From: Candidatus Woesearchaeota archaeon
GTDB taxonomy: Archaea; Nanobdellota; Nanobdellia; Woesearchaeales; JBJKQO01
NCBI GenBank assembly: GCA_046705145.1
Contig: JBJKQO010000027.1
Span: 14,852-78,851 of the forward strand
Reading direction: 5' to 3'
DNA: 64,000 nucleotides
Shown: in pieces, positions 15,525-44,279 of the stretch
Layout of the letters: every line of letters begins with the position of its first letter
Position numbering within the stretch: the first letter of the stretch is position 1
Program-made: the position numbers and the translations under genes
Notes under the pieces: model-generated
Database searches by the model: none
What the model saw: the letters and a program-made list of their open reading frames with translations, nothing else
What the model was told of the DNA's origin: nothing

Positions 15525-15575
15525 AATTTCCGTAAAGGAAAAATTAATATATTATCAAAGCTGATTTTAAAATAT

Positions 15576-16655: not shown

Positions 16656-17801
16656 ATGGAAACCAAGAAAGACTGCAGGCATTTCGTGGGATACATGCCG
16701 TGTAAGCACCACAAGGAAGACGGGTCTGTGTGCGAGGACTGCAAGCACTACAAGAAGAACGGGAAGAAGATACTTCTGATAAACTTCGTCGGGCTCGGTG
16801 ACGTGCTTAGGACTACTGCCATGATAAGGCCTCTTAAGAAGAAGTATCCTGACTGCCACATAACATTTCTTACAGGAAAGCAGGGCTATGACATAATAAA
16901 GAACATCCCTGAGATAGAAAAACCTCTTCTTATGAGCCTTGAGACCGCGCTCAGGCTGATGGTAGAGAAGTTTGACATCATGATCAACTATGACAAGCAG
17001 GATGACGCGCTTGCGATAGCAGCTCTTGTGAAGGCAAAGCACAAGCACGGCATTTACATGGATGAGTCAGGCCACCTGGCAGCATTTGACAAGAAGGATG
17101 AGATACTCGTAGACATAGGTCTTTCAGATGAGATAAAGGGATCGAACAAGAAGACGATGCAGCAGATAATGTTTGAGGTGGCAGAGCTTGAATACAACGG
17201 CGACATGCCTCTTTACAACATCTCTGAAGAGTCAAGGCAGTATGCAAAGGAGATGTTCAAGAAGAACGGCATAAGCCCAAAAGACATAGTGATAGGCCTT
17301 AACACTGGCGTAGGCGGCAGGATATTTCCGAACAGGAAGTGGCCTGCAGAATATTTTATCAGGCTTTCTGAGATGATCGAGAAGGATCTTAAGGCCAAGG
17401 TCGCGATACTTGGAGGCCCTGAAGAAAAAGAGCTCAACAAGAGGATAATCCGGGGCACAAAGGCAAAAGTGATCGATGCAGGCACTGAGAACACGATAGA
17501 GCAGTACTCTGCGCTTGTCGAGAGATGTGATGTCATCGTGACTGTCGACACGCTTGCGCTGCATCTTGCAGCAGCCCTAAGCATCCCTGTTGTCGCTCTT
17601 TTCGGACCTACAAACAAGCACGAGCTTGAGATCTACGGCAAGGGCAAGAAGCTTGCGATAGATGAGCTCAAATGCATATTCTGCTACAAGCACAGGTGCC
17701 GCGTCTGCGAAAGCGACGTAGCTAAGTGCATGGAGATGATCACCCCTGAGATGGTCCTTGATGCGATAAGGGAAACCCTCAAGGAACATGGTAGAAAATG
17801 A
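16656..17801 (+). CDS. glycosyltransferase family 9 (heptosyltransferase-like) with an N-terminal Cys-rich extension
   Basis: ILLINFVGLGDVLRTTAMIRPLKKKYPDCHITFLTG GT9 signature, preceded by CRHFVGYMPCKHHKEDGSVCEDCKHY. Confidence 0.75.
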   Translation: METKKDCRHFVGYMPCKHHKEDGSVCEDCKHYKKNGKKILLINFVGLGDVLRTTAMIRPLKKKYPDCHITFLTGKQGYDIIKNIPEIEKPLLMSLETALRLMVEKFDIMINYDKQDDALAIAALVKAKHKHGIYMDESGHLAAFDKKDEILVDIGLSDEIKGSNKKTMQQIMFEVAELEYNGDMPLYNISEESRQYAKEMFKKNGISPKDIVIGLNTGVGGRIFPNRKWPAEYFIRLSEMIEKDLKAKVAILGGPEEKELNKRIIRGTKAKVIDAGTENTIEQYSALVERCDVIVTVDTLALHLAAALSIPVVALFGPTNKHELEIYGKGKKLAIDELKCIFCYKHRCRVCESDVAKCMEMITPEMVLDAIRETLKEHGRK

Positions 17802-18832
17802 AAGTATGCTTATTATCACCTTATCCTCCTTATCCGAAAGGGATGACCCATTCAAAGTACCTTTTTGAAGAGCTGGAAAAGGTAGTCAAGACAGAAGTGT
17901 ATCCCTGGAACCATGACGGGTTATTCAGGAGGACGTTAAGCCCTTTTATCGAGTTCTTCCGCCTGAGAAGGGCGCTTAAGGAATATGACGTGATACACGT
18001 ACAGTACGCGCTTGCAAACTATATGGTGTTCTTCCTTCCTGTGCTTTGGGTCCTTAGGATAGGAACAAGAGCAAAGGTCATAATGACCACCCATGAGGAT
18101 TTTCGCAACCTTCCTGCAAGCTGGATCGTGATGGGATTCCATGACATATTCTACAATGCTGTCGATGAGCTGATCACGCACACTGAAGAGCATAAGGAGA
18201 TGCTGAGCGGGAGGCTGAAGAAGAAGACTGTCGTTATCGAGCATGGCATAATAGAGAGGGAAGTAAGGCGGGCTGAGAAGAAGGACACCGTGCTTCTTGC
18301 AGGGTTCATAAACCGGTGGAAAGGTCATGATGTTGCGGTAAAAGCGATCGCAGAAGTCAAGGAGAAGATACCTGATGTCAGGCTGATAATTGTCGGAAAG
18401 CCCCATGACAAAAAGTTTGCAGATGAGATCGACAGGCTGATAACTGATCTTGGCATCGAAAAAAACGTAGAAAGGCATTACGATTACGTTCCTGAAGAGA
18501 GATTCTTCGCGTTCTATCAGGAATCTACAATAGGCATCCTTCCTTATACAAGGATAACTATGTCAGGCATATTGTGCCATTTCATGAGCTGGCACCTTCC
18601 GGTGATAATGAGTGATATCGAGGCGTTTAGGGAGTTTTCTGAAGGCAACGGCTTGTTCGCAAAGATGGGGGATTCTCATGAGCTTGCAGAAAAGATCATA
18701 TATGCCCTTGAGAGCAAAGAGTGGAGGGATAGGGTAAGCAGGAGTTATGCTGAGTTCGCAAAGAGGTACAGCTGGAAGATGATAGCAGAAAGGACAGTCA
18801 GGGAGTATGAGAAGCTGGCTGAAAAAAGATGA
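17798..18832 (+). CDS. glycosyltransferase family 4
   Basis: 344 aa. GT-B C-terminal motifs (NRWKGHD ... LIIVGKP ... E). Confidence 0.7.
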   Translation: MKVCLLSPYPPYPKGMTHSKYLFEELEKVVKTEVYPWNHDGLFRRTLSPFIEFFRLRRALKEYDVIHVQYALANYMVFFLPVLWVLRIGTRAKVIMTTHEDFRNLPASWIVMGFHDIFYNAVDELITHTEEHKEMLSGRLKKKTVVIEHGIIEREVRRAEKKDTVLLAGFINRWKGHDVAVKAIAEVKEKIPDVRLIIVGKPHDKKFADEIDRLITDLGIEKNVERHYDYVPEERFFAFYQESTIGILPYTRITMSGILCHFMSWHLPVIMSDIEAFREFSEGNGLFAKMGDSHELAEKIIYALESKEWRDRVSRSYAEFAKRYSWKMIAERTVREYEKLAEKR

Positions 18833-19995
18833 AGCCGCTAAAGATCGCGATGATAGTTGACCACTTCAATCCGCAGGTCCATGGCAGCCATGAGTATCAT
18901 CTCACAAAAGAGCTGATTGCTATGGGCCACAAGGTGACGATAATCACTTCTGACAGGAACACGAGATGGGGTGCAGTCACAAGAAAAGATATGAAAAAAA
19001 GGTTTCCCACGGGAAAAAGCAGCTATGAGGGGATGCCTCTTGTCAGGCTCAAAGCTGCAGTTGAGATAGTGAACGTGCCTGTGATCCCAGGGCTTTACAG
19101 CTTTCTCATGAAAAACGATTTTGACATAATACACTCCCATGAGTATTTTGTATATACCAGCTATTCTGCAGCAAGGGCTGCAAGGTCAAAAGGAGTGCAT
19201 TTCATATTCACAAATTCAGGGTACAAGCGCTCAGACAGGTTCTTCTGGAAGCATGTCTATAGGCTTGCTGAAAACATCATCGGAAAAAAAGTTGTCAGCC
19301 AGGCTGACAAGATAATCTCCCTGACAAAGCAGGGAAAAGATTTCCTTGTGGAGTTTGGTGCGAAAGAAGAGAGGATCGAGATCACTCCTACTGGCGTGAA
19401 CACGGAAAAGTTCAGGCCTGGTATAGAAAGCGTTCTCAAGACAAAGCATAACATCTCAGGAAATGTCATCCTTTGCTGCGCAAGGCTTATCGAAAACAAA
19501 GGACAGCACGTGCTGATAGAGGCGTTCAGGAAAATAAAGGTTGAGGTAAGCGATGCGAAGCTCGTGTTTGTAGGAAAAGGAGAAGATGAGAAAAAGCTTA
19601 AAGAGCTTGCAAATGATATCAAGGATGTTTTCTTCCTCGGAGCTTTTGGCTATGAGGACATGCCTTCTGTCTACAATGGAGCAGACGTGTTCTGCCTGCC
19701 GACAGTCTATGAGGAGCCTTTTGGAAACGTGATAGTTGAGAGCGCGGCGTGCGGCGTGCCTGCAGTAGGCTCGTCTGTTGGTGGGATAAAAGAGACGATA
19801 AAAGAAGGGTTTTCAGGGTTTCATGTCAAGCCTGACATCCCTAAAGTCCTCGCAGAAAAGCTTATCCTTCTTCTTAAGGATGAGGCACTAAGGAAGACTA
19901 TGGGGAAACAGGCAAGAGAGCGCGCAGAAAAGGAATACTCCTGGAAGATCATAGCTGAGAAGACATCAAGGATATATGAGGAAATGCTAAGATGA
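18829..19995 (+). CDS. glycosyltransferase family 4
   Basis: 388 aa. ENKGQHVLIEAF, LVFVGKGEDE, EPFGNVIVESAACGVPAV GT4 signature. Confidence 0.8.
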   Translation: MKPLKIAMIVDHFNPQVHGSHEYHLTKELIAMGHKVTIITSDRNTRWGAVTRKDMKKRFPTGKSSYEGMPLVRLKAAVEIVNVPVIPGLYSFLMKNDFDIIHSHEYFVYTSYSAARAARSKGVHFIFTNSGYKRSDRFFWKHVYRLAENIIGKKVVSQADKIISLTKQGKDFLVEFGAKEERIEITPTGVNTEKFRPGIESVLKTKHNISGNVILCCARLIENKGQHVLIEAFRKIKVEVSDAKLVFVGKGEDEKKLKELANDIKDVFFLGAFGYEDMPSVYNGADVFCLPTVYEEPFGNVIVESAACGVPAVGSSVGGIKETIKEGFSGFHVKPDIPKVLAEKLILLLKDEALRKTMGKQARERAEKEYSWKIIAEKTSRIYEEMLR

Positions 19996-21005
19996 GAAAG
20001 CCAAGGGTATCGATAGTGATCCTGACATGGAACCAGGTGAGATACACTCTTGACTGCCTGAAAAGCGTCTACGGCCAGGACTACAAAGATTTTGAGATCA
20101 TAGTTGTCGATAACGCATCAACAGATGATACTGTAAAGAGGCTACGTGGCAGGTTCATAAAGGCGAGGATAATACAGAACAAGAAGAACAGGGGCTTCGC
20201 GGAGGGCAACAACATTGGTGTAAGGGCTGCAAAAGGGGAACTTGTCGTACTTTTGAACAATGATACGATAGTTGACAAGAGGTGGTTGAGCGAGCTCGTG
20301 GCTTTTATGGACAAGGAAAAGACGACTGCGATAGCGATGTCTAAGATATATGACAAGTACTGCAAAAAGGAGTTCTCATTCGATTATGAGACCATAAACC
20401 CACTAGGCTATCCCATCCGGTTCAGGTTTGACAAGAAGAAAGAAAACTGGCCTTTCTGGGCGAAGGGGTGCTCGCTTATATTCAGGAAGGATGTTGTAGG
20501 TGAACCTTTTGACAAGGACTATTTTCTTTATGCCGAGGACACTTATCTTTCATGGAAGACAAGGATCCGCGGGTTCAAGCTGAAGCTTTGTGAGCCCTCG
20601 ATAGTATATCACGTCGGGGAAGCATCATCAAAAAACATAAGGTCGATGAAGAACTATTACATGGAAAAGAACCGTTTTACTAATTTTCTGCTTTTTTATA
20701 ATGCAAAAAACATATTTTTCCTTATGCCATGGATGCTGTTCTCAGCCATATTCCATAACATCTATGACATAAAAAATGCAGGATATAGGTTTAAGGGATA
20801 TTTCTGGAACATAAGTAACTTCAGCACAATAATGAAAAAAAGGAAAAAGATCCAAAAGAGCAGGGAAGTTGGAGACAGGGCAATCACAAGATACATGAGC
20901 CTGAAGTTTTTCGACGAGACATCGATAAAAGGGGTGCTTTGGAAACCGTTCATATACGTTTTGAACCTGATTTTCTGGACTTATTGCAGGCTCGTGTTCT
21001 TGTGA
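19992..21005 (+). CDS. glycosyltransferase family 2
   Basis: VSIVILTWNQ ... IIVVDNASTDDT ... GCSLIFRK: GT-A DxD-type motifs. Confidence 0.8.
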   Translation: MRKPRVSIVILTWNQVRYTLDCLKSVYGQDYKDFEIIVVDNASTDDTVKRLRGRFIKARIIQNKKNRGFAEGNNIGVRAAKGELVVLLNNDTIVDKRWLSELVAFMDKEKTTAIAMSKIYDKYCKKEFSFDYETINPLGYPIRFRFDKKKENWPFWAKGCSLIFRKDVVGEPFDKDYFLYAEDTYLSWKTRIRGFKLKLCEPSIVYHVGEASSKNIRSMKNYYMEKNRFTNFLLFYNAKNIFFLMPWMLFSAIFHNIYDIKNAGYRFKGYFWNISNFSTIMKKRKKIQKSREVGDRAITRYMSLKFFDETSIKGVLWKPFIYVLNLIFWTYCRLVFL

Positions 21006-21097
21006 AAAAAAAGATTCACCACGATATTTCTTATTAGGGGCCAATAGATAACAAAAATGCACTAGAAAGATATATAAACGATCATATTTTTAGCCAG

Positions 21098-22078
21098 ATG
21101 ATGGATTGCCCTATCTGCAAGTCAAAAAATGCTAAAAAGAGATATGAAAAGTTCCCTGGTTATATAGAAGGGACAGCATATGACATATTTGAATGCAAAG
21201 AATGCGACACCCAGTTCATCTCTCCTGAAAAGATAGACAAAAAAGTCTATGATCTGATCTACTCGCAGAAAAATACTCCAGGGTATGAAAGGTACTTCAG
21301 GTATGCAAGAGATGTGAAAAAACAAAGGTCCCCCTTAAAGTTTCTTTCCCAAAAAGAATCTACTTATTTCCCGGTCTATTCATTCTTAAAAAATAAAAAA
21401 CCTGGGCTTAAGATACTTGAGGTAGGATGCAGCTATGGGTACCTTACTTACAGCCTCAACAGGATGGGCCACAGGGCAAAAGGGATAGATATCTCAAAAG
21501 AGGCCATAGGATTTGCAAGATCCCAATTCGGGGAATACTTTGAGGTGTCAGACCTGAAGGATTACAAGGATGAAAAAAAGTTTGACCTGATAATAGCGAC
21601 TGAACTGATAGAGCATCTTCCTGATCCTGTCGGATTCGTGCAAAAATGCAAGGGCCTGCTGGAAAAAGAAGGCAGGATCATCATCACCACGCCTAACAAG
21701 GATTACAACGGGGATGCTGTATGGAAGACTGATCTGCCTCCTGTACATACTGTTTGGCTGAGCAGGAAAAGTTTTGAGAAGATGGCAAAGATGCACGGGC
21801 TAAGGTACGATTTTACAGACATGTCAGGTTATGTTTCAAACAGTGAGAACCAGCTTGTAAACCTCCTGTTTTCCAGGAAGAAAAGTATTCCGGGGCATGT
21901 TCTGGACAGGAAAGGGGGCATAAAGCAGGAGTGGATGGTCAGGTCTGAACCCTTGTCAAGGAAGCTTGTCAAAAAAATCATATTTTGGGCTCCTGTAAGA
22001 TATTCTTCACATCTTTTGTGCAGGGTGATAAACCCTCAAAGCCAGACCTTAGGAGTTGTCCTAAAAAAGAGCTGGTAA
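21098..22078 (+). CDS. class I SAM-dependent methyltransferase with an N-terminal zinc ribbon
   Basis: CPICKS..CKECD zinc ribbon. LEVGCSYGYLT SAM motif I; DLIIATELIEHL motif. Confidence 0.75.
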   Translation: MMDCPICKSKNAKKRYEKFPGYIEGTAYDIFECKECDTQFISPEKIDKKVYDLIYSQKNTPGYERYFRYARDVKKQRSPLKFLSQKESTYFPVYSFLKNKKPGLKILEVGCSYGYLTYSLNRMGHRAKGIDISKEAIGFARSQFGEYFEVSDLKDYKDEKKFDLIIATELIEHLPDPVGFVQKCKGLLEKEGRIIITTPNKDYNGDAVWKTDLPPVHTVWLSRKSFEKMAKMHGLRYDFTDMSGYVSNSENQLVNLLFSRKKSIPGHVLDRKGGIKQEWMVRSEPLSRKLVKKIIFWAPVRYSSHLLCRVINPQSQTLGVVLKKSW

Positions 22079-22100
22079 CCTACGATATCCTCTTCTTATT

Positions 22101-23591
22101 TCAGAATATTTTTGCAAATATCTCCCTAATCTCTCTTATTGATGTTATCTTAAGTGCAAAAAGCAAAAGGGAATATACTCCTCCTCCGAAAGCCAGGCAT
22201 ATCAGCGTTTTTGGGATCAAAGGAAGGCTTATTGCCTGCATCACAAGATATGTTGTGGCAGCAGTCAAAAGCGAGACAAGAGATATCTTTATCCAGTTTG
22301 TCCACGGCTGGTTGAACCCTACGAGCTTGTTGAGCTTGACTGTAGACACGACAAACACTACAAAAAATATGAGTGATGTTCCGAATGCTGCACCGTTCAT
22401 CCCGAAAAAAGGGATAAGGATTATGTTAAGCAATATGTTTGCAAGCCCTGCAGTAAGCGTTATCTTCATGTTTATCTTAGGATGGCCTGTACCTGCGATG
22501 ACCTGAAAGTTTATGAGGGATATCGCATAAAAAAGCCCCCCTACTGAAAGTATGGAAAGTGTCAGTGCAGCAGGCGCATATTCTGGTGTGTAAAGCAGGG
22601 TCATTATGGATGTTGAGAAGACGACGAAGAAAATGGTGATCGGAGCTGTCAGTATGAACACGTTCTTGTGTATGGAAAACATCAGCCTCGCAAGGACTTT
22701 TTTCTCTTTTTTTGCCCACAGCTCTGAAGACAGAGGAAGTATCATCATCGCTGCGGCGGATGCGACAAACCACACTAGGTTTGATGCTGGCTGGGCTGCC
22801 TGATACAAGCCAACATCATTGAAGCTTGTCATTATCGTGAGGATTATGGTGTCGCTGTAAGATATTATGAATGTGTATGTTAAGGCCAGCATGTTGAATA
22901 TCCCAAAAGAAAACATCTCCCTTATCATCTTCTTGTCAACTGCTGTCTTGAACTTGAAAAATCCCTTGAATATCACCTTTGACAATACTGGCAGGTAAAA
23001 CATCGGCAGTATCACGTATGTCAGGATGTACGCCCAAAGCGGAGCAAAAAGCCCAAGGCCCATCTTGAGGAAGATCAGTGAAAAGATAAGCACAAAGGAC
23101 ATCCTGACAAAGGCTTCGCTTGAAAACCATCCCATCCTTTGGGAGCCTTGTATCGCATATGTTATTATCTCCTGCGCGAACGAGACGAAAAAGAACAGCG
23201 CAAGCAGCTTGACAAATCCTGAAAGCGCGATATCCTTGAAATATAGTGATGCTATCATGTCAGAAAACAGGATCATTATCCCAAAAACGACGAGGGATAT
23301 CGCAAGATGGACGTATGCGACAGAATATACTACTCCCTTGACTCTTCCTCGCTGTTTTTTTGCGATAAATTCCGGTATGAACTTGACAAGGGCATGCCTT
23401 AGGCCAAGATCCCTCACTATAGTTATCAGAAAGGAAAAAAGTGCTATCGCAGAATAGAATATGCCGTATTCCGAAAGCGTGAGCTTTCTTGCTAGCACCA
23501 TCCTGAGGATGTATGTCACGACCATCGAAAAGAACAGCATCCCAAATACCATCGCAGTGTTCTTTACCGCCTTCCTGCTGTAATCCGCCAT
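22101..23591 (-). CDS. polysaccharide biosynthesis protein / oligosaccharide flippase (Wzx-like, MOP superfamily)
   Basis: 496 aa, about 14 TM helices, typical Wzx/RfbX topology and length. Confidence 0.75.
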   Translation of the reverse strand: MADYSRKAVKNTAMVFGMLFFSMVVTYILRMVLARKLTLSEYGIFYSAIALFSFLITIVRDLGLRHALVKFIPEFIAKKQRGRVKGVVYSVAYVHLAISLVVFGIMILFSDMIASLYFKDIALSGFVKLLALFFFVSFAQEIITYAIQGSQRMGWFSSEAFVRMSFVLIFSLIFLKMGLGLFAPLWAYILTYVILPMFYLPVLSKVIFKGFFKFKTAVDKKMIREMFSFGIFNMLALTYTFIISYSDTIILTIMTSFNDVGLYQAAQPASNLVWFVASAAAMMILPLSSELWAKKEKKVLARLMFSIHKNVFILTAPITIFFVVFSTSIMTLLYTPEYAPAALTLSILSVGGLFYAISLINFQVIAGTGHPKINMKITLTAGLANILLNIILIPFFGMNGAAFGTSLIFFVVFVVSTVKLNKLVGFNQPWTNWIKISLVSLLTAATTYLVMQAISLPLIPKTLICLAFGGGVYSLLLFALKITSIREIREIFAKIF

Positions 23592-23668
23592 GATACGAAA
23601 GAAAAAAGAAAAAGGGTATTTAAACCAATCGGATTATTGTTTGATAAGGCTTAAAAATAGTTAATTGA

Positions 23669-25496: not shown

Positions 25497-25534
25497 TCCC
25501 CCCATATAAGAAACCTTTTTATACAAAGTAGGTT

Positions 25535-26539
25535 TTGCTCTGCTTAATGAGAAAAAAAGCTATTGTTACTGGAGGTGCGGGGTTTATCGGCTCGCATATG
25601 GTTGAGCTGCTCCTAAAAGAAGGGTTTGAAGTGATAGTGATAGATGACATGTCCAACGGGCAGTGGGATAACGTAAAGCTGTTTGACAGGAACCCTAAGT
25701 ACAAGTTTGTGGAGCAGGACATATCAGAGGATTTTGATGACTCGATATTTAAGGATACGATGTACGTTTTTCATATGGCCGGGCTTGCAGACATAGTGCC
25801 TTCCATCGAAAGGCCGCTTGATTATCATAAGGCTAATGTCACAGGGACCATCAAGGTACTTGAGGCATCAAGAAAGCACGGGGTGAAAAAGCTCGTATAC
25901 AGCGCTTCTTCATCCTGTTACGGCATCCCTGACAATTATCCTACAAAAGAGACTGATGAGATAAGGCCTCAGTACCCTTATGCTTTCACGAAGTACGTGG
26001 CGGAAGAATACGTGCTGTTCTGGGGGAAGCTTTACGATCTTCCTGTCGTTTCCCTGAGGTACTTCAATGGTTATGGGACGAGGGCGAGGACAAACAACAC
26101 TTACGGCGCGGTCTTTAAGGTGTTTCTTAAGCAGAAGCTTGAAGGCCATCCTCTGACTATAGTCGGTGATGGTACCCAGACTAGGGATTTTGTCTATGTG
26201 ACAGATATCGTAAGGGCAAACTTCATGGCAGCAGAGTCTGGTGTCAAAGGAGAAGTGTTTAACATAGGCACAGGGAACCCTCAGTCAGTAAACTATCTTG
26301 CAAGACTGATCGGCGGGCCGACAGTGAACATCCCTAAGCGACCTGGAGAGCCTGACTCGACCCATGCAGACATAACAAAAGCAAAAAAGATGCTTGGTTG
26401 GGAGCCTAAGGTAAAGTTTGAGGAAGGCGTGAAAATAATGCTTGACCATATCGATTACTGGAAAGATGCCCCTTTGTTCACAGTCAAAGACATAGAAAGA
26501 GAGACCAAGGCCTGGTTTGAGTATCTTGACAGGAAATAG
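25535..26539 (+). CDS. NAD-dependent epimerase/dehydratase (UDP-sugar 4-epimerase / UDP-glucuronate decarboxylase-like)
   Basis: IVTGGAGFIGSH Rossmann motif, and YxxxK in YAFTKYVAE. Confidence 0.85.
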   Translation: MLCLMRKKAIVTGGAGFIGSHMVELLLKEGFEVIVIDDMSNGQWDNVKLFDRNPKYKFVEQDISEDFDDSIFKDTMYVFHMAGLADIVPSIERPLDYHKANVTGTIKVLEASRKHGVKKLVYSASSSCYGIPDNYPTKETDEIRPQYPYAFTKYVAEEYVLFWGKLYDLPVVSLRYFNGYGTRARTNNTYGAVFKVFLKQKLEGHPLTIVGDGTQTRDFVYVTDIVRANFMAAESGVKGEVFNIGTGNPQSVNYLARLIGGPTVNIPKRPGEPDSTHADITKAKKMLGWEPKVKFEEGVKIMLDHIDYWKDAPLFTVKDIERETKAWFEYLDRK

Positions 26540-26638
26540 CTAAATCGGCGTTTTTTGCTTGATTTGATTCATAATATATATAAATAAACAGAGAATCTGT
26601 ATTTGATGCATATAAAAAGTGTTTTAAGGGGATGATAG

Positions 26639-27706
26639 ATGAAAGCTGAAGACATACTTGAGACAAATGACAGTATATTAAGGTATCTCAAGAAGATTAA
26701 GGAAAAATACAGCCTGGACCAGATAAGACAGGTTTTTGAAAACCTAAAAAAGATTGATGTTGTCGTGATAGGTGACACGATAATAGACGAGTACAGGTTC
26801 ACGATCCCAAAAGGCAGGGCTGCAAAGGACCCTATAATGTCTCTTGATTTTAAGAGGAGCGAAAAATACGCCGGAGGCATACTTGCCGTGACCAACCACA
26901 TCGCCGGATTTGTCAATTCTGTGCATCTCATAACTGTGCTTGGAGAACAGATGAGAGAAGAAGGGCTTATCAGGAAATCTCTTAAGAGCAATGTAAAACC
27001 TATATTTTTCACAAAAAAGGATTCTCCTACAGTCAATAAGACAAGGTATGTCGATGACGTAAGGAAAGGCAAGCTTTTCAAGGTAGAATACATGAATGAT
27101 CTTCCGCTTGAAAAAGATATGGAAGATAAGATTATCGCACACATGAAAGATGTCCTTCCAAGATATGATATGGTTGTCGTGGGAGATTTTGGCCACGGGT
27201 TCATAAGCAACAGGATGGCAAGGGAGATCGAGGAAAATTCAAGGTTTCTTGCTGCAAACGTCCAGACTAACAGCGCAAACATAGGTTACAACTACATAAC
27301 AAGGTACAAGAAGGTCGATTACCTGACGACAAATGAGAGCGAGGTCAGGCTTGCGATGTCAGACAAGTTCGGAAGCTTAAAAGAAGTCATAAAGAAGATC
27401 CAGGAAAGGACAAGCTTCAAGAACTTTATCCTGACGATGGGCGGTGAAGGCGCGCTTTATGTGAAAGACAAGAAGGTGTTTGAGGGTCCTGGACTGACAA
27501 GGAAGACAAAAGATGTTGTGGGCGCAGGAGATGCCCTGTTTGCGGTGTCTTCTCTTCTTGAGAAGGAAGGGCTTGAAGGAGATCTTATAGTCTTTTTGTC
27601 AAACTGCGTGGGGGCTATAGCAGTAAACATCATGGGCAACAAGGAAAGCGTAAGAAAGGATGATCTTATGGAATTTATAGAAGGTGTTTATGATGCCGTG
27701 GAATAA
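26639..27706 (+). CDS. PfkB-family sugar kinase (D-glycero-beta-D-manno-heptose-7-phosphate kinase, HldE domain-I-like)
   Basis: VVVIGDTIIDEY N-terminal motif and DVVGAGDALFAV anion-hole motif. Adjacent to the gmhA-like gene. Confidence 0.7.
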   Translation: MKAEDILETNDSILRYLKKIKEKYSLDQIRQVFENLKKIDVVVIGDTIIDEYRFTIPKGRAAKDPIMSLDFKRSEKYAGGILAVTNHIAGFVNSVHLITVLGEQMREEGLIRKSLKSNVKPIFFTKKDSPTVNKTRYVDDVRKGKLFKVEYMNDLPLEKDMEDKIIAHMKDVLPRYDMVVVGDFGHGFISNRMAREIEENSRFLAANVQTNSANIGYNYITRYKKVDYLTTNESEVRLAMSDKFGSLKEVIKKIQERTSFKNFILTMGGEGALYVKDKKVFEGPGLTRKTKDVVGAGDALFAVSSLLEKEGLEGDLIVFLSNCVGAIAVNIMGNKESVRKDDLMEFIEGVYDAVE

Positions 27707-28247
27707 TTATAAGGAAAAGATCGTTCAGGCTCTTGACATATTTGAGTTTGACGACAAGATGCTTGACGTGCTTAAGAACTCCGTGAAGAACAACCAGCGC
27801 ATATTCATCGCTGGAAACGGAGGGAGCGCAGCTATTGCCATGCATTATGTCTGCGATTTCTCAAAGGGCGCTAATCAGGATTGGCAGAAGAACTTTGAGA
27901 GGTATAAGGCGATATGCCTTTCAAGCAACCTGGGCTACATGACTGCCATATCAAATGACGAGCATTATGAGGACGTGTTCCGCCAGCAGCTTGTGAACCT
28001 TGCTGCGCCAAATGATATCCTTATCCTGATATCCTCTTCTGGAAACAGCCCTAACATAATAAAGGCGATAGAGTATGCAAGAGAGATAGGTATGATCGTC
28101 ATAGGCATAAGCGGATTTGATGGTGGGAAGCTGAAGAAGATGTCAGATTACAGCGCACATGTCAATTTCCCTTCATATGAGGTATGTGAGGATATCCATT
28201 CTATATTCGGGCATTTTCTTGCTTGCTATCTCAGGGAGACTGTTTGA
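27684..28247 (+). CDS. gmhA: SIS-domain phosphoheptose isomerase
   Basis: 187 aa. IFIAGNGGSAAIAMHYVCDF SIS signature with GmhA-like length. Confidence 0.8.
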   Translation: MFMMPWNNYKEKIVQALDIFEFDDKMLDVLKNSVKNNQRIFIAGNGGSAAIAMHYVCDFSKGANQDWQKNFERYKAICLSSNLGYMTAISNDEHYEDVFRQQLVNLAAPNDILILISSSGNSPNIIKAIEYAREIGMIVIGISGFDGGKLKKMSDYSAHVNFPSYEVCEDIHSIFGHFLACYLRETV

Positions 28248-28305
28248 TAATATACCGAATATCATATATGTAGATATAGAAAATTTAGAAAACTGAGATT
28301 AAGTT

Positions 28306-28782
28306 CTATCCCCTATCCTTCTTCAGGCTGATGAAAGCCGGGCCTTTTTTCTTGTATGATTCGAGTATTGCCTCTTTTGCTTCCTTTCCGTCTTTTGGGA
28401 AGTATGACTTGATGTTCTTGAACATCTTCATCATGTAGGGTGCGTCTATCTCTGCGTGTGTCGGTCCCTGTGTGGGGTAGTCTGCGTATCCGACAAGCTT
28501 TACGTTCACGTTCTGCTGGTCGATGTCAAGCTTTACCTGCTCAAATGGCCTTTCTATGAGGAAAGGTGTTATCGTGTATACGTAAGGCTTGAGGCCTTCA
28601 AGAGCCATTCCAGCAGCTGCTCCTATCATAGCCTGCTCGCATATGCCGAAGTTGAAGAATCGGTCAGGGAACTTTTCAGCAAACTCGTCAACTACCTTGT
28701 ATCCGAAATCTCCGATCAAGAGGACTATCTTGTCATCCTTTTCTGCAAGTTCTGTTATTGTTTTTCCGAACGTGTGCCGCAT
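28306..28782 (-). CDS. transketolase C-terminal-section protein, pyrimidine-binding domain only (truncated relative to typical subunits)
   Basis: 158 aa. FNFGICEQAMIGAAAGMALEG and GPTH motifs. The usual ~120-aa TK_C domain is missing. Confidence 0.65.
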   Translation of the reverse strand: MRHTFGKTITELAEKDDKIVLLIGDFGYKVVDEFAEKFPDRFFNFGICEQAMIGAAAGMALEGLKPYVYTITPFLIERPFEQVKLDIDQQNVNVKLVGYADYPTQGPTHAEIDAPYMMKMFKNIKSYFPKDGKEAKEAILESYKKKGPAFISLKKDRG

Positions 28783-29531
28783 CCTAGTTCCTCGTATGCT
28801 TTTTTTAGAAGGTCTCCTTCAGGAAGCCTTGCGTGCCAGCATGGCTCGTCTATCATGAAGCTGCATCCTCTTCCTTTGACTGTGTGGGCGATGACTACTC
28901 TTGCCATCCCTTTTTTTATCGTCTGGCGGGAAAATGAGAGTGTGAGCTGTTCAAAGTCGTGGCCGTCTATCTCCATGACGTTCGCTCCAAAAGCCCGAAA
29001 CTTTGCTGCAAGGTTGTCCTCGTCCATGATCGTTTTCACTGAGTCAAGCGCCTGGTACTTGTTGTGGTCAACTATGACTGTGAGGTTGTCAAGCTTTAGC
29101 TTTCTTGCAAGGTTCATCGCTTCCCACACGCTTCCTTCCTGGCATTCGCCGTCTCCCATCACGACGAAGAAGTGACCTTCTTTTTGCTTGATCTTTCTTG
29201 CAAGAGCCATGCCTGCTGCTATAGGGAGACCGTGCCCCAGGCTCCCTGTTGTCGCCCATACTCCGTGCTCTTCTTCTATGTCTGGGTGGCCTGATATCGT
29301 CGGGTTAAATCCCTTGTCTCTCAGGCAGGCATAAAGCGTTATGCATGCGTGTCCTTTGCTCAGGAGGATCTTGTCTTCTTCTTTTGCGGCATCATCATAA
29401 AGCGCTACCATTATCTCAACCACTGAGAATGCTGGCGCTATGTGGCCGTCCTTGTGCTCTATCGCTATGTCAAGAGCGTCTTTTCTTATCTTCTTCGCCT
29501 TTGACTTAAGCAACTCAACCTTTTCTTTCAT
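28755..29531 (-). CDS. transketolase N-terminal section (TPP-binding subunit)
   Basis: 258 aa. GHxxxxLG, GSLGHGL and GDGE TPP-binding motifs. Overlaps the downstream Pyr-domain gene by 28 nt. Confidence 0.8.
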   Translation of the reverse strand: MKEKVELLKSKAKKIRKDALDIAIEHKDGHIAPAFSVVEIMVALYDDAAKEEDKILLSKGHACITLYACLRDKGFNPTISGHPDIEEEHGVWATTGSLGHGLPIAAGMALARKIKQKEGHFFVVMGDGECQEGSVWEAMNLARKLKLDNLTVIVDHNKYQALDSVKTIMDEDNLAAKFRAFGANVMEIDGHDFEQLTLSFSRQTIKKGMARVVIAHTVKGRGCSFMIDEPCWHARLPEGDLLKKAYEELGCGTRSEKQ

Positions 29532-29565
29532 CTTGATCTCCCGACAACCTTGTGATGACCAAATA

Positions 29566-30636
29566 CTAATCCTTAACCATCCTGACTATGCATCTTCCAG
29601 GGCATTCTCTTTGTCCTGACATGATCGAGTCTATCCCTTCGTTTATGTCTTCAAGATCGACCACTTTTGTGATCGTGTCTTTCACGTTTATCAGCCCTTT
29701 CTGGAAAAGCTCCCAGTAGGTTGGGATGTCACGGTCAGGGTCTGACCCTCCTCCTGTAGATCCGCGAAGGAAGCGTTCCCTGTGTATGCTTAAGGTGTCG
29801 ACAGTTATTGTCGATCCTTTTGGCGGGACTGCAAGGAAAAGGACTTCTCCTGGAATCGAGCTTGCGTTTACTGCTTTTTCCGTGAACTGGGGATTTGATG
29901 CTATTATCAGGACATGTTTTGCTCCCTTGCCTTCCGTGATATCAATTATCTCTTTCACAAAATCGCATTTGGCAGGATTTAATGTGTGTGTTGCACCAAG
30001 CTTTTTTGCGAGCGCAAGAGCGCTCTCGTTTATGTCTACTGCGATTATCGGAAAGCATCTTATCATCGCTGCTGCCTGGACTGAAAAAAGGCCTACTCCT
30101 CCTGTACCGCATATCGCTATCGAGTCGCCAGGTCTTGCTTTTGCGTCGTTTAGGACCGCGCTCACTCCTGTCGTTAGGGCGCAGCCAAAAAGAGGGGCTG
30201 CAAAAAGGTCGCTTCCTTTCGGTATCTTTGTGACCCTGTTTTCAGGGACGACCCCGTATTCGTTAAATGTTGTTATCCATCCTGCATTTACCCTTTCTCC
30301 TTTCCTGTGGTAGAAGGGAGTTCCTGCATCTATGCCTGATCCTTTTTTCCAGTGCATGATAACATGGTCGCCAGGGACTACTTTTTTCACTCCTGGGCCT
30401 ACATCCTCTACTATGCCTGCTCCTTCATGCCCCAGCATGTGAGGAAGGTATGGGTCTTTTCCCATTACGCCTTTTATCTCTTCGATCTGCTTTCCGCATA
30501 TCCCTGTGTAGTGTATCTTTACAAGGACCTGTCCTGGTTCAAGCGGTCCGTCAAATGTGACTGTGTCCATGACAAGCGGTGAGTTGTTCTTCTCAAGTAT
30601 CGCTGCCCTGAAGCTTATTGGGTATCTTATGCTCAT
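29566..30636 (-). CDS. zinc-dependent medium-chain alcohol/polyol dehydrogenase
   Basis: GHEGAGIV and GTGGVGL motifs. Start at the GAGG-supported ATG 30636; the tracked ORF extends to 30687. Confidence 0.8.
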   Translation of the reverse strand: MSIRYPISFRAAILEKNNSPLVMDTVTFDGPLEPGQVLVKIHYTGICGKQIEEIKGVMGKDPYLPHMLGHEGAGIVEDVGPGVKKVVPGDHVIMHWKKGSGIDAGTPFYHRKGERVNAGWITTFNEYGVVPENRVTKIPKGSDLFAAPLFGCALTTGVSAVLNDAKARPGDSIAICGTGGVGLFSVQAAAMIRCFPIIAVDINESALALAKKLGATHTLNPAKCDFVKEIIDITEGKGAKHVLIIASNPQFTEKAVNASSIPGEVLFLAVPPKGSTITVDTLSIHRERFLRGSTGGGSDPDRDIPTYWELFQKGLINVKDTITKVVDLEDINEGIDSIMSGQRECPGRCIVRMVKD

Positions 30637-30643
30637 CTTTTCC

Positions 30644-31423
30644 TCACATCGTTCCGCCATCGACAGGTATAAGTGTTGTCGGTGCAAATGTTACCTGTTT
30701 TGATGCCATGAAAACTACAAACGGAGCTATCTCCTCTGCTGTTCCAAGCCTTCCGATCGCGTGGTGGTGCCTGAGAAAGTCAGATCTTTTCCTTAAGAAT
30801 GCGTCAAGGTCTTTTTGGTTCATCGGATTGTCCTCATCCCAGTGCCCTCCTGGCGCGTATATCGCTCCTGGAAGCACTGCGCTTACGACTATCCCATCAG
30901 GAGCAAGCGCCCTTCCAAGAACCTTTGTGTAGGCGTTGCAGTATGCTTTTGCTGCTCCGTATGGTGCAGATCCTCTAAGCTCTATCCCTGATATCGATGA
31001 TATGTTGATTATCCTTCCCCATTTTTTCTTCTGCATCGGAGGGACCACTATCCTGTTTATATCTATTGATACTCCGACGTTGAATTTCACTACTTTTAGC
31101 CATTCGTCCATAGGTGAAAGTATGTCCTTGACTCCCAGTGTTCCGCCGATGTTATGGACTACTATGTCATAATCGCCGTTCCTTTTTATGAGAGCCTTGA
31201 CCGCTTTTTCAGGCGCACCGTCTTCCATAAGGTCTATCGCATAATGATCATGACCTTTTTCTTTTCCGCCCATCTCAAGGACTGTCTGTTTTAGCTCTTC
31301 TTCTCTTCTTGCGATGACAGAAACCTTGCATCCTTCCTTTGCAAACTCAAGCGCGATGGCCTTCCCTATGCCCTGGCTTGCTCCTGTTATAAGAACGTTC
31401 TTTCCTTTAATCCCTAGATCCAT
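30644..31423 (-). CDS. SDR-family short-chain dehydrogenase/reductase
   Basis: VLITGASQGIGKA and YGAAK motifs. Confidence 0.85.
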   Translation of the reverse strand: MDLGIKGKNVLITGASQGIGKAIALEFAKEGCKVSVIARREEELKQTVLEMGGKEKGHDHYAIDLMEDGAPEKAVKALIKRNGDYDIVVHNIGGTLGVKDILSPMDEWLKVVKFNVGVSIDINRIVVPPMQKKKWGRIINISSISGIELRGSAPYGAAKAYCNAYTKVLGRALAPDGIVVSAVLPGAIYAPGGHWDEDNPMNQKDLDAFLRKRSDFLRHHHAIGRLGTAEEIAPFVVFMASKQVTFAPTTLIPVDGGTM

Positions 31424-31542
31424 TTTATCTCCCCCACTATGAGCAAATCAAAATTGATGTTTATAAAGGTTTCTGTTGATAATAAGATAGCTATAAAAAG
31501 GATAAAAAAATCCTGTTAGAATACAAAATATGGGGGGGTACC

Positions 31543-32424
31543 ATGCAAGAAAATAATACTATAGTAGGGATGAGACAAATGATTCTTTCAGAAGAGAATA
31601 GAATGAGATTAGATATACATTCTTCAGTTCTAAAAAGGGTAAATGATGAAGTTGAGCTTGTCACAAGTTGTTACGTTATCCCTTCAAAGAAAGGTGTAAC
31701 TGAGCTCCACTTGCCCAAAGTAATTCGTAATCTTATGAGCGACCGCCTACTAACCCTCACCAAGATGGTTTATTCTAGTGATTTTGATCCAACAAATGAA
31801 AAACAAGCACAGAAACTTGTTAGTGACCTTCGTAACATGGGGCCCCATCTCGGATTTTCAGATATGGGCTTGACAGATGTTGTGGATGCAGCTTTCTGTG
31901 CTGATCCTTTGTTCCCATCTACCCTGGACGGAAACGCTTTTTTTGTGTGGGAGCCTGAAAGTGAGATGATGGAACGTATCCTGACTATGCCCCCCACCCA
32001 GGATATAGGTTTCGTTAACAGACAAGTTGAACTAAAAGGTATGATTTCTAAAGGAAGAACACCTGAAGAAGGAAGGGAATTCTATTCTCTTGTGATGTAT
32101 ATCCACCCGCAATATGCACCATATCCAGGAAGGGGCGCTTCTTTGGTGGTGAGATTATCTACAAAAAATATTGCCCAATTTGATATTAATCCTAAAGGAA
32201 AAGTAACAGCACAAGTATCTGATGGTGATATAGTAGACAATCTTAGAAACACGCTAGATTACTTAGAAAGAATGGGGGTAACCCCTCAGCACATATTGTA
32301 TGCCCTTCAAAGAAGTAACTTGGGAGACGCGCAAAGGAATGCAGTTGCTGCTTTAGTCCCTGAGTTACAGAAATACCCTCACACGGCAGGAGACGAATTA
32401 TTTGTTGTGAAGCCAACAAGATAA
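31543..32424 (+). CDS. hypothetical protein (no recognised domain; atypical codon usage)
   Basis: 293-aa clean ORF. Uses TTA/CTA/AGA/CGT codons that are rare in neighbouring genes. Lies on the opposite strand inside the glycan island. Confidence 0.45.
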   Translation: MQENNTIVGMRQMILSEENRMRLDIHSSVLKRVNDEVELVTSCYVIPSKKGVTELHLPKVIRNLMSDRLLTLTKMVYSSDFDPTNEKQAQKLVSDLRNMGPHLGFSDMGLTDVVDAAFCADPLFPSTLDGNAFFVWEPESEMMERILTMPPTQDIGFVNRQVELKGMISKGRTPEEGREFYSLVMYIHPQYAPYPGRGASLVVRLSTKNIAQFDINPKGKVTAQVSDGDIVDNLRNTLDYLERMGVTPQHILYALQRSNLGDAQRNAVAALVPELQKYPHTAGDELFVVKPTR

Positions 32425-32427
32425 GCT

Positions 32428-33504
32428 TTAAAGCTGCTTGTCAAACTCCCTGACAAGATCTTCATAGCCCTTGCCTGTCACGTCGACAAATCCTGCTCTG
32501 AGGTTTTCTGCAAGGCCTTTGTCTTCATGCCTGTCTCCTATGACTATTATCCTGCTGTAATCAGAGAATTCTTTTTTCATGTCTTTTAGGCAGTCATGGA
32601 CCATCTCAGGAGATGGCTTCCTTTTGGTCTTTTCCTTTATGAAATCCTTATGGAATGTCATCTCTCCTTCCTTTTGTTTGGCATAAGCTGTGTCAACATT
32701 GGGGCAGTACTGCCAGCTTGATATCTTTATGCCTTTTTTTGCTAGAAGATCATGTATGTATGAGTGTATCTCTTCCACTCTTTTTGTGGTGTACATCTGC
32801 CTTGCGACTCCTGCCTGGTTTGTCACGACAACAAGATCAGCATCATGTCTTGTTTTGATGTATATGAGAAGGTCAACAACGTCTTTTCTTAGGGTAACTT
32901 TTTCTTTCCAGCTGTCATCCTTGCCAAAAAATCCATCATCCTCTATGAGTGTCCCGTCGCGGTCCACGCAGACAAGTATCTTGCTTTTGTCAAGCTTCTC
33001 CCTTATGTAGCTGATTATGTCTGTTGTCGAAAGCTTTGGGTCGTTCGTGTATCTCATCTCGCCCCCGACAGATCTTATGGCCTCTCTTTCCTCTGTTATC
33101 CCTGGCGTGGTCTTGTGGATGAAATCAGGGCCTTTTATGTAATATGATGGCTTAAGCCCATTTATGACCTCGACGCCTTTCTTAAAATCTGTTATGACCG
33201 CATAGTCTACGGTCTCAAGCGCTGCTATCATGTAAGCTCTTAGCCTGTCAGTGAATACCGGCCTTCCGTCTCCTTTCCTTTGCGAGACAAACCTGTCAGA
33301 AGTGATCGATACGAAAAGGACGTCGCAAAGCTTCTTTGCTGATTCAAAGTGCTTGACATGGCCTGGGTGGAGAAGATCGAACCCTCCGTGGCACAGTCCT
33401 GCTTTTTTTCCTTTTTTCTTCAGTTCAGATATCTTTTTTGCTGCCTCTTCAAAAGAGAGTATCTTGACTGAATTGTATTCTTCCAGATTACCTGCTTCGA
33501 ACAT
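32428..33504 (-). CDS. bifunctional sugar-phosphate nucleotidyltransferase (HldE domain-II-like) fused to a HAD-IIIA heptose-1,7-bisphosphate phosphatase (GmhB-like)
   Basis: N-terminal GLCHGGFDLLHPGHVKHF cytidylyltransferase-fold motif. C-terminal LVCVDRDGTL HAD motif I and GDRHEDKG motif. Confidence 0.7.
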   Translation of the reverse strand: MFEAGNLEEYNSVKILSFEEAAKKISELKKKGKKAGLCHGGFDLLHPGHVKHFESAKKLCDVLFVSITSDRFVSQRKGDGRPVFTDRLRAYMIAALETVDYAVITDFKKGVEVINGLKPSYYIKGPDFIHKTTPGITEEREAIRSVGGEMRYTNDPKLSTTDIISYIREKLDKSKILVCVDRDGTLIEDDGFFGKDDSWKEKVTLRKDVVDLLIYIKTRHDADLVVVTNQAGVARQMYTTKRVEEIHSYIHDLLAKKGIKISSWQYCPNVDTAYAKQKEGEMTFHKDFIKEKTKRKPSPEMVHDCLKDMKKEFSDYSRIIVIGDRHEDKGLAENLRAGFVDVTGKGYEDLVREFDKQL

Positions 33505-44271: not shown

Positions 44272-44279
44272 GCTGCAAG

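Follow-up and report, generated by a model that had tools for sequence, protein, structure and literature searches.

A putative nucleotide-heptose pathway with a nucleotidyltransferase-phosphatase fusion in a glycan island of a Woesearchaeota-like archaeon

A 64,000-nucleotide stretch of contig JBJKQO010000027.1 (Candidatus Woesearchaeota archaeon, assembly GCA_046705145.1, positions 14,852 to 78,851 of the forward strand; hereafter the window, to which all coordinates refer unless another locus is named) contains a surface-glycan island that spans about 30 kb. The four activities that make up the beta-type nucleotide-heptose pathway are encoded by three genes of this island: a SIS-domain isomerase, a PfkB kinase, and a fusion of a nucleotidyltransferase (NT) with an HAD-IIIA phosphatase. 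Each activity has a heptose enzyme family as its best match, both by sequence and by structure, and the three genes, which fall inside 6.9 kb, probably direct the synthesis of nucleoside diphosphate-activated heptose (NDP-heptose). Because the equivalog cut-offs of the heptose families are missed, membership in the pathway rests on best match and conserved synteny, and the proteins are to be regarded as distant relatives of the known enzymes. The surrounding genes would fit the assembly of a surface glycan that contains a modified heptose.

Heptose synthesis is already established for archaea, and the island adds a variant to this known kind of system. D-glycero-D-galacto-heptose is present in the N-glycan of Thermoplasma acidophilum (PMC11407970, PMC12448462), a complete ADP-heptose gene cluster has been reported for the archaeon “Iplasma” from acid mine drainage (PMC3750248), and Tang et al. 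(2024) found that archaeal homologs of heptose enzymes are functional and make ADP-heptose (PMC11573728, PMC11461863). These reports render outdated the statement in an earlier note on this DNA, made from its letters without database searches, that heptose is rare in archaea. What appears to be new is the fusion of HldC- and GmhB-like domains and its prevalence among DPANN archaea, a subfamily of family 9 glycosyltransferases (GT9) with eight cysteines, and a module that combines a short transketolase with radical-SAM enzymes.

The candidate heptose genes and their conserved neighborhood

Open reading frames (ORFs) of the window were scanned against Pfam and against NCBIfam with its curated equivalog cut-offs; key proteins were also compared with the PDB, and predicted models were used for fold searches. 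The genes at the center of the analysis are:

25535-26539, + strand: GalE-like nucleotide-sugar epimerase of the short-chain dehydrogenase/reductase (SDR) superfamily (top PDB match 4zrm)
26639-27706, + strand: PfkB kinase, similar to HldA and to domain I of HldE (355 aa; Pfam PfkB, 3.4e-17)
27684-28247, + strand: SIS-domain isomerase, GmhA-like (Pfam SIS_2/SIS, 1.4e-19)
32428-33504, - strand: fusion of an HldC-like NT (residues ~26-170) and a GmhB-like HAD-IIIA phosphatase (residues ~175-347)

The best NCBIfam model for the kinase is rfaE_dom_I (TIGR02198; 128.1 bits, 3.7e-37), with the ribokinase model at 42.1 bits (6.4e-11), and its top PDB match is HldA (4e84, 1.4e-12; ribokinase 2e-7); a GAGD motif is present. 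Likewise, the isomerase is best matched by gmhA (TIGR00441; 117.3 bits, 6e-34), its 12 best PDB matches are all GmhA (top match 1tk9, 1.4e-25), and it carries the motifs GNGGSA and SSSGNSPN. The earlier note had read these genes as GmhA-type and HldE-domain-I-like members of a complete nucleotide-heptose pathway. All ORFs that it named are in place with significant family matches, and the kinase, the isomerase, and the NT were assigned not to ribokinase, KpsF, or glycerol-3-phosphate cytidylyltransferase (TagD), the alternatives it had raised, but to heptose models. The completeness of the pathway is borne out insofar as a heptose family is the best or joint-best match for each of the four activities, but every heptose equivalog cut-off is missed, and the only cut-off passed is that of the general model HAD-SF-IIIA.

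In the fusion, a Pfam CTP_transf_like domain (residues 38-164) that includes the motif GGFDLLHPGH (residues 40-49) is followed by the HAD domain (residues 175-347). The N-terminal half is most similar to rfaE_dom_II (TIGR02199; 107.4 bits, 5.3e-31; TagD 31.9 bits), whereas the C-terminal half passes HAD-SF-IIIA (TIGR01662; 63.0 bits vs. a cut-off of 44.6) and has its best models in the HAD-IIIA/GmhB/HisB-N group. The PDB sequence matches are HldC for the N-terminal half (5x9q, 1.5e-13) and GmhB of Escherichia coli for the C-terminal half (2gmw, 5.9e-7). The fold matches of the predicted model agree with this assignment (HldC 5xf2 with a TM-score of 0.78-0.80 and 31% identity; GmhB 3l8e/2gmw with a TM-score of ~0.70), and the fold search returned no PDB chain that spans both domains. 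With a mean predicted local distance difference test (pLDDT) score of 92.9 and a predicted TM-score (pTM) of 0.66, the AlphaFold model comprises two confident domains whose mutual orientation is uncertain.

Both domains of the fusion are under purifying selection, because their catalytic motifs are almost invariant in alignments of 60 and 119 family members. Invariant or nearly so are the HxGH motif (G40, G41, D43, H46, G48, H49) and the STT motif (T160, T161) of the NT, and in the HAD domain motif I (DxDGT; D181, R182, D183, G184, T185), the motif II region (N229, Q230, G232), the motif III lysine (K296), and motif IV (GDxxxD; G323, D328); D181, D183, T185, K296, G323, and D328 are invariant across the 60 relatives. 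A bifunctional enzyme that catalyzes the last two steps of the pathway would look like this. The architecture is not that of HldE, in which an N-terminal PfkB domain and a C-terminal NT share one polypeptide: here the kinase is separate, and the NT is N-terminal and joined to a phosphatase, as the earlier note had recognized. It also lies outside the three NT architectures (single-domain, kinase/NT, and isomerase/kinase/NT) given in the commentary by Tang et al. (PMC11573728). No description of an NT-phosphatase fusion was found in the searchable literature, which did not include the primary paper of Tang et al.

A search of 5.8 billion proteins, in which 8,000 candidates were scored, yielded 1,546 matches to the fusion at E <= 1e-5. 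The best 120 homologs are 323-394 aa long, share 52-67% identity, and, where named, stem from Woesearchaeota, Nanoarchaeota, or Pacearchaeota; the source labels read “HAD-IIIA family hydrolase” or “rfaE ... nucleotidyltransferase chain/domain”. The HldC-GmhB fusion is a large and widespread family whose named members are mostly DPANN archaea. Several fusion-bearing contigs (L026, CAWEAK010000008.1; also L007, L008, L010, L014, L021, L024, L027, and L031) are labelled Spirochaetota, Methanosarcinales, Thermoplasmatales, or Methanobacteriota, which reflects either a horizontal spread of the family or mis-binning and mislabelling of DPANN contigs in co-assembled metagenome-assembled genomes (MAGs).

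The gene context was evaluated in about 37 related loci. Neighbors were counted within 10 kb of the fusion in the 31 loci that had been fetched through the fusion protein, some of which are redundant or ended by contig ends; L035, L036, and L037 were picked through the short transketolase subunit alone. An ortholog of the PfkB kinase is present in 20 of the 31 loci, the SIS isomerase in 16, and the GalE-like epimerase in 17, so that the grouping of the pathway genes is not due to chance. Usually, the fusion adjoins the isomerase, the kinase, and the epimerase. The latter is the best-conserved accessory gene and a partner of the kinase and isomerase (60-77% identity in 10 of the 17 loci), and epimerase orthologs in this range of identity adjoin the PfkB-SIS pair in at least 10 loci. 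Other recurrent neighbors are a zinc-dependent alcohol dehydrogenase (Zn-ADH; 13 of 31 loci, often beside the kinase), a B12 radical-SAM enzyme (10 of 31), and a small family 2 glycosyltransferase (GT2) not more than 300 bp from the fusion (8 of 31). In L008 (7824-9935, - strand) and L014 (5791-7869, + strand), one polypeptide of 692-703 aa combines the GalE-like epimerase with a second SDR domain.

Two observations add to the synteny. Kinase and isomerase form a single protein in L001 and L024 (557 and 538 aa, respectively), confirmed by Pfam; this second, independent type of fusion ties the activities of the pathway together. Moreover, L036 mirrors the window nearly gene for gene, with identities of 56% for the kinase, 77% for the isomerase, 55% for the fusion, 47% for the small GT2 next to the fusion (GT2b), and 63% for a radical-SAM enzyme with a SPASM domain (rSAM-SPASM). 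The locus continues with an SDR and a methyltransferase, followed by a radical-SAM enzyme, the two subunits of the short transketolase (TKn, 58%; TKpyr, 77%), a Wzx-type flippase, and a large membrane protein (PMTb).

By its family assignments, the SIS protein would act as sedoheptulose-7-phosphate isomerase and the PfkB kinase as heptose-7-phosphate 1-kinase, which would phosphorylate O1 to yield the 1,7-bisphosphate. The C-terminal HAD-IIIA domain of the fusion would then remove the 7-phosphate, and the N-terminal HldC-like domain would add the nucleotide to form NDP-heptose, which would place two consecutive reactions (steps 3 and 4) on one polypeptide. The four activities and the folds (SIS, PfkB, HAD-IIIA, and cytidylyltransferase-fold NT) are those of the known nucleotide-heptose pathway. 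However, the known pathway includes HldD, in place of which the window has the GalE-like epimerase, and it feeds the core of lipopolysaccharide (LPS), whereas the genes of the window are part of an archaeal glycan island. In Thermoplasma and “Iplasma”, heptose is likewise tied to surface or N-glycosylation genes that are clustered and syntenic in relatives; the window differs in lineage (DPANN), and these accounts, as far as accessible, make no mention of an HldC-GmhB fusion, an eight-cysteine GT9, or a short transketolase/radical-SAM module.

Several results weigh against a heptose pathway or against the use of its product in the island. The kinase reaches only 128.1 of the 345 bits required for rfaE_dom_I, the isomerase 117.3 of 209.45 bits for gmhA, and the NT 107.4 of 181.5 bits for rfaE_dom_II; the phosphatase domain fails both GmhB models (PRK08942, 66.3 vs. 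178 bits; TIGR00213, 52.4 vs. 149.6 bits). The motif (F/L)xxGRSTT of the known enzymes is replaced by NDPKLSTT, so that nucleotide specificity cannot be read from it, and the cysteines that we take to form the zinc loop of GmhB are not visible in the sequence of the HAD domain. HldD is absent among the 60 PDB matches listed for the adjacent epimerase, which is GalE-like (best match 4zrm, a UDP-hexose 4-epimerase, 2.8e-61). The GT9 of the island fails the equivalog models for LPS heptosyltransferases I, II, and III (best with heptosyltransferase II, 98.9 bits vs. a cut-off of 134.6), and a GT9 is a neighbor of the fusion in only one of the 31 loci. Finally, a profile built from 10 orthologs of GT2b matches chondroitin synthase (9.1e-22) above DPMS, GtrB, and ArnC (~1e-14).

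The short transketolase and the identity of the sugar

Besides the candidate heptose genes, the island encodes a pair of transketolase-like subunits:

28306-28782, - strand: TKpyr, subunit consisting of a Pyr domain only (158 aa; Transket_pyr only)
28755-29531, - strand: TKn, thiamine diphosphate (ThDP)-binding (PP) subunit (258 aa; Transketolase_N, 101.5 bits)

The earlier note had considered them a split transketolase and a possible local source of sedoheptulose 7-phosphate. The pair indeed consists of two transketolase-like subunits, but it lacks the C-terminal domain and has an altered substrate site, which makes the role as a supplier doubtful. Pfam detects no Transketolase_C domain in either subunit, and an assembly artefact does not explain this, because the best 120 homologs of TKpyr are equally short (149-176 aa, 69-80% identical). 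The GDG...N region and the His residues of TKn align with human transketolase. The equivalent of human E366, which we take to activate the cofactor, is Glu in all 120 sequences of the short family, and the His of the GPTH motif (human Q428) is equally invariant. Among the residues that presumably contact the phosphosugar, the phosphate-binding R318 is retained in 119 of 120 sequences, whereas S345 is replaced by Gly, Lys, Arg, or Ala, H416 by Ala (115 sequences) or Ser (5), and D424 by Gln (100), Leu (17), or His (3). The split transketolase of Carboxydothermus hydrogenoformans (6yak/6yaj) shares the two-subunit plan, the ThDP-activating Glu, and the GPTH His with the pair in the window, but its second subunit has ~310 aa, whereas that of the window ends after the Pyr domain; the pair in the window also differs in the replaced equivalents of S345, H416, and D424 and in its context of radical-SAM glycan-tailoring genes.

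This context is evident in L035, L036, and L037, where the short transketolase is located between radical-SAM genes, some of them homologous to the rSAM-SPASM of the window, with GT9-like genes, SDRs, and methyltransferases nearby. In L008 (4782-5948, - strand), Pfam identifies a Pyr-only subunit that is fused to an S-adenosylmethionine (SAM)-dependent methyltransferase (388 aa). An ortholog of the classical SDR of the window (66% identity) adjoins the short transketolase in L024. A further observation concerns L037, which has at least six radical-SAM genes in its cluster and carries both a short pair (245 + 159 aa; 15361-16480) and, 7 kb apart, a normal split transketolase (309 + 318 aa, with Transketolase_C; 7262-8480). 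A literature search for transketolase-like enzymes in sugar-tailoring or capsule clusters returned nothing useful.

Given the absence of the C-terminal domain, the replaced contact residues, the context of radical-SAM and methyltransferase genes, and the fusion with a methyltransferase, the short transketolase more likely has an altered specificity and a dedicated role in tailoring or in forming a precursor than a housekeeping role as a source of sedoheptulose 7-phosphate. That it is an ordinary transketolase that supplies the pathway is unlikely, although part of the evidence points in this direction. TKn is clearly transketolase-like (6yak, N chain of the split enzyme, 5.3e-43; human transketolase, 1.3e-41), with the ThDP-activating Glu and the GPTH motif conserved, and transketolase alone converts fructose 6-phosphate and ribose 5-phosphate to sedoheptulose 7-phosphate. 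Transketolase-like pairs of normal length also accompany heptose genes: in L023, L025, and L027 they are direct neighbors and show similar replacements of H416 and D424, and L001 has a further pair at its edge. Against a housekeeping function speak not only the missing domain and the replacement of three substrate-contact residues in all 120 family members but also the co-occurrence of short and normal-length forms in L037, the surroundings of the short form, which lies amid genes for radical-SAM enzymes and methyltransferases and in one case forms a fusion with a methyltransferase, and the scores of both subunits, which are far below the transketolase equivalog cut-offs. In any case, only 5-6 of the 31 loci have a transketolase-like gene at most 10 kb from the fusion, so that the core pathway is independent of it.

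The low frequency of transketolase-like genes also bears on the nature of the activated sugar. The same enzymes could activate a sugar other than a plain heptose, such as an octose-type higher-carbon or a C-branched sugar, whose precursor would be built by the short transketolase through two-carbon transfer and remodelled by radical-SAM enzymes. In the closest analogy for an octose, the lincosamide route, GmhA- and GmhB-like enzymes act on an octulose phosphate. Such a scheme would accommodate the tight conservation of the short transketolase (69-80%), in which the Glu for the cofactor, the His of GPTH, and an Arg that binds phosphate are kept and the equivalents of S345, H416, and D424 are replaced. 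It would also accommodate the position of the short transketolase, which in L035 and L037 is enclosed by radical-SAM genes and adjoins GT9-like genes and in L036 and the window lies beside a full heptose module. The methyltransferase fusion in L008, the additional normal-length split transketolase in L037, and the failure of all pathway enzymes to reach the heptose equivalog cut-offs point the same way. We nevertheless consider a different sugar distinctly improbable, because most loci with fusion, SIS, and PfkB genes lack a transketolase-like gene within 10 kb and all four core enzymes match heptose enzymes best. It is very unlikely that the core proteins are unrelated superfamily members without a heptose pathway (a ribokinase-type kinase, a KpsF/Phi-type isomerase, a glycerol-3-phosphate cytidylyltransferase, and a histidinol-phosphatase-like HAD), a view that would draw on the scores below the equivalog cut-offs and on the 77.9 bits of the HAD domain with the histidinol-phosphatase domain model (cut-off 84.15), because the heptose models lead the alternatives by 60-85 bits, the sequence and fold matches among solved structures are HldA, GmhA, HldC, and GmhB, and the four activities are linked by their conserved clustering and by gene fusions of two kinds.

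The eight-cysteine GT9 and possible routes to the surface

Under the preferred reading, in which the core genes produce NDP-heptose, several neighboring enzymes are candidates for its modification and use. The relevant genes of the island are:

16656-17801, + strand: GT9, candidate heptosyltransferase (Pfam PF01075, Glyco_transf_9; 83.5 bits vs. gathering threshold 22)
17798-18832, + strand: family 4 glycosyltransferase (GT4; Glycos_transf_1, Glyco_trans_1_4), overlapping the stop codon of GT9 by 4 bp
18829-19995, + strand: GT4 (Glycos_transf_1, 9.2e-42)
19992-21005, + strand: GT2 (Glycos_transf_2, 3.4e-29)
21098-22078, + strand: SAM-dependent methyltransferase (Methyltransf_23/31/11)
22101-23591, - strand: Wzx/MurJ-type flippase for lipid-linked oligosaccharide (Polysacc_synt, 3.3e-23)
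23669-25336, - strand: GT-C membrane glycosyltransferase, PMT_2/ArnT-like (PMT_2, 8.1e-08)
29566-30687, - strand: Zn-dependent medium-chain alcohol dehydrogenase (ADH_N + ADH_zinc_N), recurrent accessory
30644-31423, - strand: classical SDR (adh_short, 4.4e-39)
33488-34255, - strand: GT2b, small GT2 (Glycos_transf_2, 1.6e-24)
34267-35334, - strand: rSAM-SPASM (Radical_SAM + SPASM), same direction as GT2b and fusion
35538-37502, - strand: PMTb, large membrane protein, weakly PMT/GT-C-like (PMT 4e-4, below threshold)
40929-42761, + strand: GT-C membrane glycosyltransferase (PMT_2 / Glyco_transf_22)
42817-44271, + strand: B12-binding radical-SAM enzyme, HpnJ/AprD4-like (best model HpnJ, 205.6 bits, below cut-off)
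44280-45212, + strand: HpnA-like SDR sugar epimerase/reductase (Pfam/NCBIfam)
45098-45907, + strand: small GT2, similar to AglJ and dolichyl phosphate (Dol-P) hexose transferases (AglJ 119.7 bits, cut-off 325; Dol-P hexose transferase 67.7; ArnC 57)

The GT9 combines four cysteines near its N terminus (C7, C16, C26, C29), the Cys-rich module to which the earlier note had drawn attention, with a second, C-terminal cluster that had gone unmentioned (C340, C343, C348, C358). An exhaustive search yielded 418 cluster representatives at E <= 1e-30, and both clusters are 91-96% conserved in 129 full-length relatives; the set of eight cysteines is a hallmark of the subfamily. The pattern suggests one or two binding sites for a metal or an Fe-S cluster, and the low pLDDT of the C-terminal Cys loop (only 61-67 at residues ~340-360, vs. 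93.5 for the GT9 model) would be consistent with a metal that is not part of the prediction. The enzyme has a GT-B fold, with Foldseek matches to the Veillonella GT9 3tov (8e-20), WaaF (5.4e-14), WaaC (1.6e-13), and then TibC. D13 and D261 of WaaC, which we take to be functional residues, align with D49 (95% conserved) and D298 (96%). While the GT-B fold is shared with WaaC, WaaF, 3tov, and TibC, the two 4-Cys clusters are an extra feature of the enzyme in the window, and the acceptor of the LPS heptosyltransferases, lipid A-Kdo, is to our knowledge absent from archaea, which sets the GT9 further apart. TibC is an iron-containing protein heptosyltransferase, but its similarity is a weak one of fold (E 9.4e-9, TM-score ~0.5, 10-12% identity), and the sequence search with GT9 gave no match to TibC; this is too weak a basis for equating the Cys clusters in the window with its iron finger.

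The named relatives of the GT9 are from Aenigmarchaeota and Nanoarchaeota. The closest one (51% identity by phmmer, 49% by BLASTP) is encoded on an Aenigmarchaeota MAG (L032), where the next genes are a single-domain HldC-like gene, which overlaps that of the GT9, and a PfkB gene; genes for STT3/AglB, GT2, and PMT_2 are in the vicinity. In L035 and L037, shorter GT9-like genes precede the short transketolase by one or two genes. The GT9 is a candidate for using an NDP-heptose donor, because the island also encodes the pathway and because HldC-like and PfkB genes adjoin its closest relative. The link between GT9 and the pathway that the earlier note had drawn finds a parallel in L032, but a GT9 is no regular neighbor of the fusion (one of the 31 loci).

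The GT9 heads a run of genes (GT9-GT4-GT4-GT2) with 4-bp overlaps, followed after 93 bp by the methyltransferase; the convergent flippase gene adjoins. This arrangement suggests the assembly of a lipid-linked oligosaccharide by a cytoplasmic route, in which the GT9 would add the sugar to the lipid-linked glycan. Gene context also suggests that the sugar would be modified by the adjacent GalE-like epimerase and probably by the Zn-ADH, the rSAM-SPASM, and the short transketolase-like enzyme as well. Sugar tailoring by the rSAM-SPASM is probable; in L035, L036, and L037, homologs of this enzyme (32-63% identity) are found on the flanks of the short transketolase or of the fusion. ADH, SDR, and epimerase genes and two radical-SAM enzymes, to which the earlier note had ascribed a possible role in such tailoring, are all present in the island, but the two radical-SAM genes (34267-35334 and 42817-44271) are located beyond the interval 16656-33504 on which it had focused.

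A second route may start from GT2b. Its gene shares 17 bp with the beginning of the fusion gene and is preceded, in the same orientation, by a GT-C-like gene and the rSAM-SPASM. As a candidate first user, GT2b may also accept the activated sugar and, in analogy to the logic of ArnC/ArnT or DPM1/PMT, form a polyprenyl-phosphate sugar donor, from which GT-C enzymes (PMT_2-like) would finish the transfer outside the membrane. A more specific assignment as Dol-P-heptose synthase (DPM1/GtrB type) was suggested by the best PDB match of the single sequence (DPMS 5mlz, 1.5e-10), whereas the AglJ model gives only 27.8 bits; the assignment was lowered to a possibility when the profile search did not set GT2b apart from generic GT2 enzymes. 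GT-C genes recur close to the fusion in L004, L015, L016, L028, L031, and L036. Homologs of the GT-C at 23669-25336 are located near the fusion in L015 and L031, homologs of that at 40929-42761 upstream of GT2b and fusion in L016 and L028, and homologs of PMTb (37-40% identity) by the heptose genes in L015, L031, and L036. Counts of GT-C neighbors are unreliable, since phmmer missed the PMT_2 gene that adjoins the fusion in L004 and is present in the precomputed Pfam annotation. The genes that follow the second GT-C (42817-45907) look like a second unit for sugar tailoring and attachment to a lipid carrier. For the AglJ-like GT2 of this unit, translation probably starts further downstream than at the listed TTG, as the model match begins at residue 37-40.

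The reason why archaea make NDP-heptose “remains elusive” according to the commentary by Tang et al. (PMC11573728). The position of the candidate pathway beside GT9, GT2, and GT-C enzymes and a flippase offers a concrete and testable answer for a very large uncultured group, namely, that the heptose would go into surface glycans. A more far-reaching scenario holds that DPANN archaea widely use a fourth NT architecture and that in a subset of them NDP-heptose is remodelled to a new higher-carbon or C-branched sugar by the short transketolase and radical-SAM/SPASM enzymes and installed by a metal-binding eight-Cys GT9 and GT-C enzymes. This scenario is speculative and in our view improbable; if true, it would represent new sugar chemistry and could bear on the surface presentation of episymbiotic cells. 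The short transketolase/radical-SAM module may in any event encode a novel sugar-tailoring chemistry. Moreover, the HldC-GmhB fusion, the eight-Cys GT9, and the Pyr-only subunit of ~160 aa (“hypothetical” or “transketolase”) are abundant in metagenomes under generic names, and proper names for these three families would improve the annotation of DPANN genomes.

The island and its host

The window belongs to a Woesearchaeota-like DPANN archaeon. It encodes both subunits (alpha and beta) of an archaeal-type phenylalanyl-tRNA synthetase (PheRS), TrmB regulators, NurA, RadA, and an archaeal CCA-adding enzyme. The best named relatives of PheRS-alpha are exclusively from Woesearchaeota/Nanoarchaeota (~60% identity; top match overall 71%), and six proteins of the window that were found in the protein collection are singleton clusters at 90% identity. 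The G+C content of 0.41-0.46 over the island, compared with 0.39-0.46 in the flanks, is representative of a base composition that shows no sign of recent horizontal transfer across the window. Scans of the window for tRNAs and Rfam families gave zero matches.

By Pfam and NCBIfam, the island comprises one GT9, two GT4, three GT2, a methyltransferase, and a Wzx-type flippase; two clear GT-C (PMT_2-like) membrane glycosyltransferases and a weak one; two extended (nucleotide-sugar-type) SDRs, one classical SDR, and one Zn-ADH; and one radical-SAM/SPASM and one B12 radical-SAM enzyme. Several ORFs of the window have no Pfam match (37646-38794, + strand, 382 aa; 38791-40764, + strand, 657 aa; 31543-32424, + strand, 293 aa; 61389-62819, - strand, 476 aa). 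The first two overlap by 4 bp and are part of the glycan island. The first three have neither an NCBIfam match nor a homolog in the related loci, which is why the ORF at 31543-32424 was not counted as part of the system.

A Peptidase_M55 gene (D-aminopeptidase-like; 15576-16481, + strand) directly upstream of the GT9 operon is an odd neighbor for a glycan cluster and is not kept in related loci. Just past the downstream edge of the island, a DUF368/VCA0040-like protein (48798-49718, - strand; Pfam “undecaprenyl phosphate translocase-like”, 244 bits) possibly takes part in carrier-lipid recycling in an archaeon. The window also encodes a large PAS-PAS-TrmB/MarR sensor-regulator (6434-8413, - strand) and a methyl-accepting chemotaxis protein with MCPsignal, HAMP, and zinc-binding CZB domains (8628-10811, + strand). 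Chemoreceptors are surprising for Woesearchaeota-like DPANN archaea, a group usually said to have reduced genomes.

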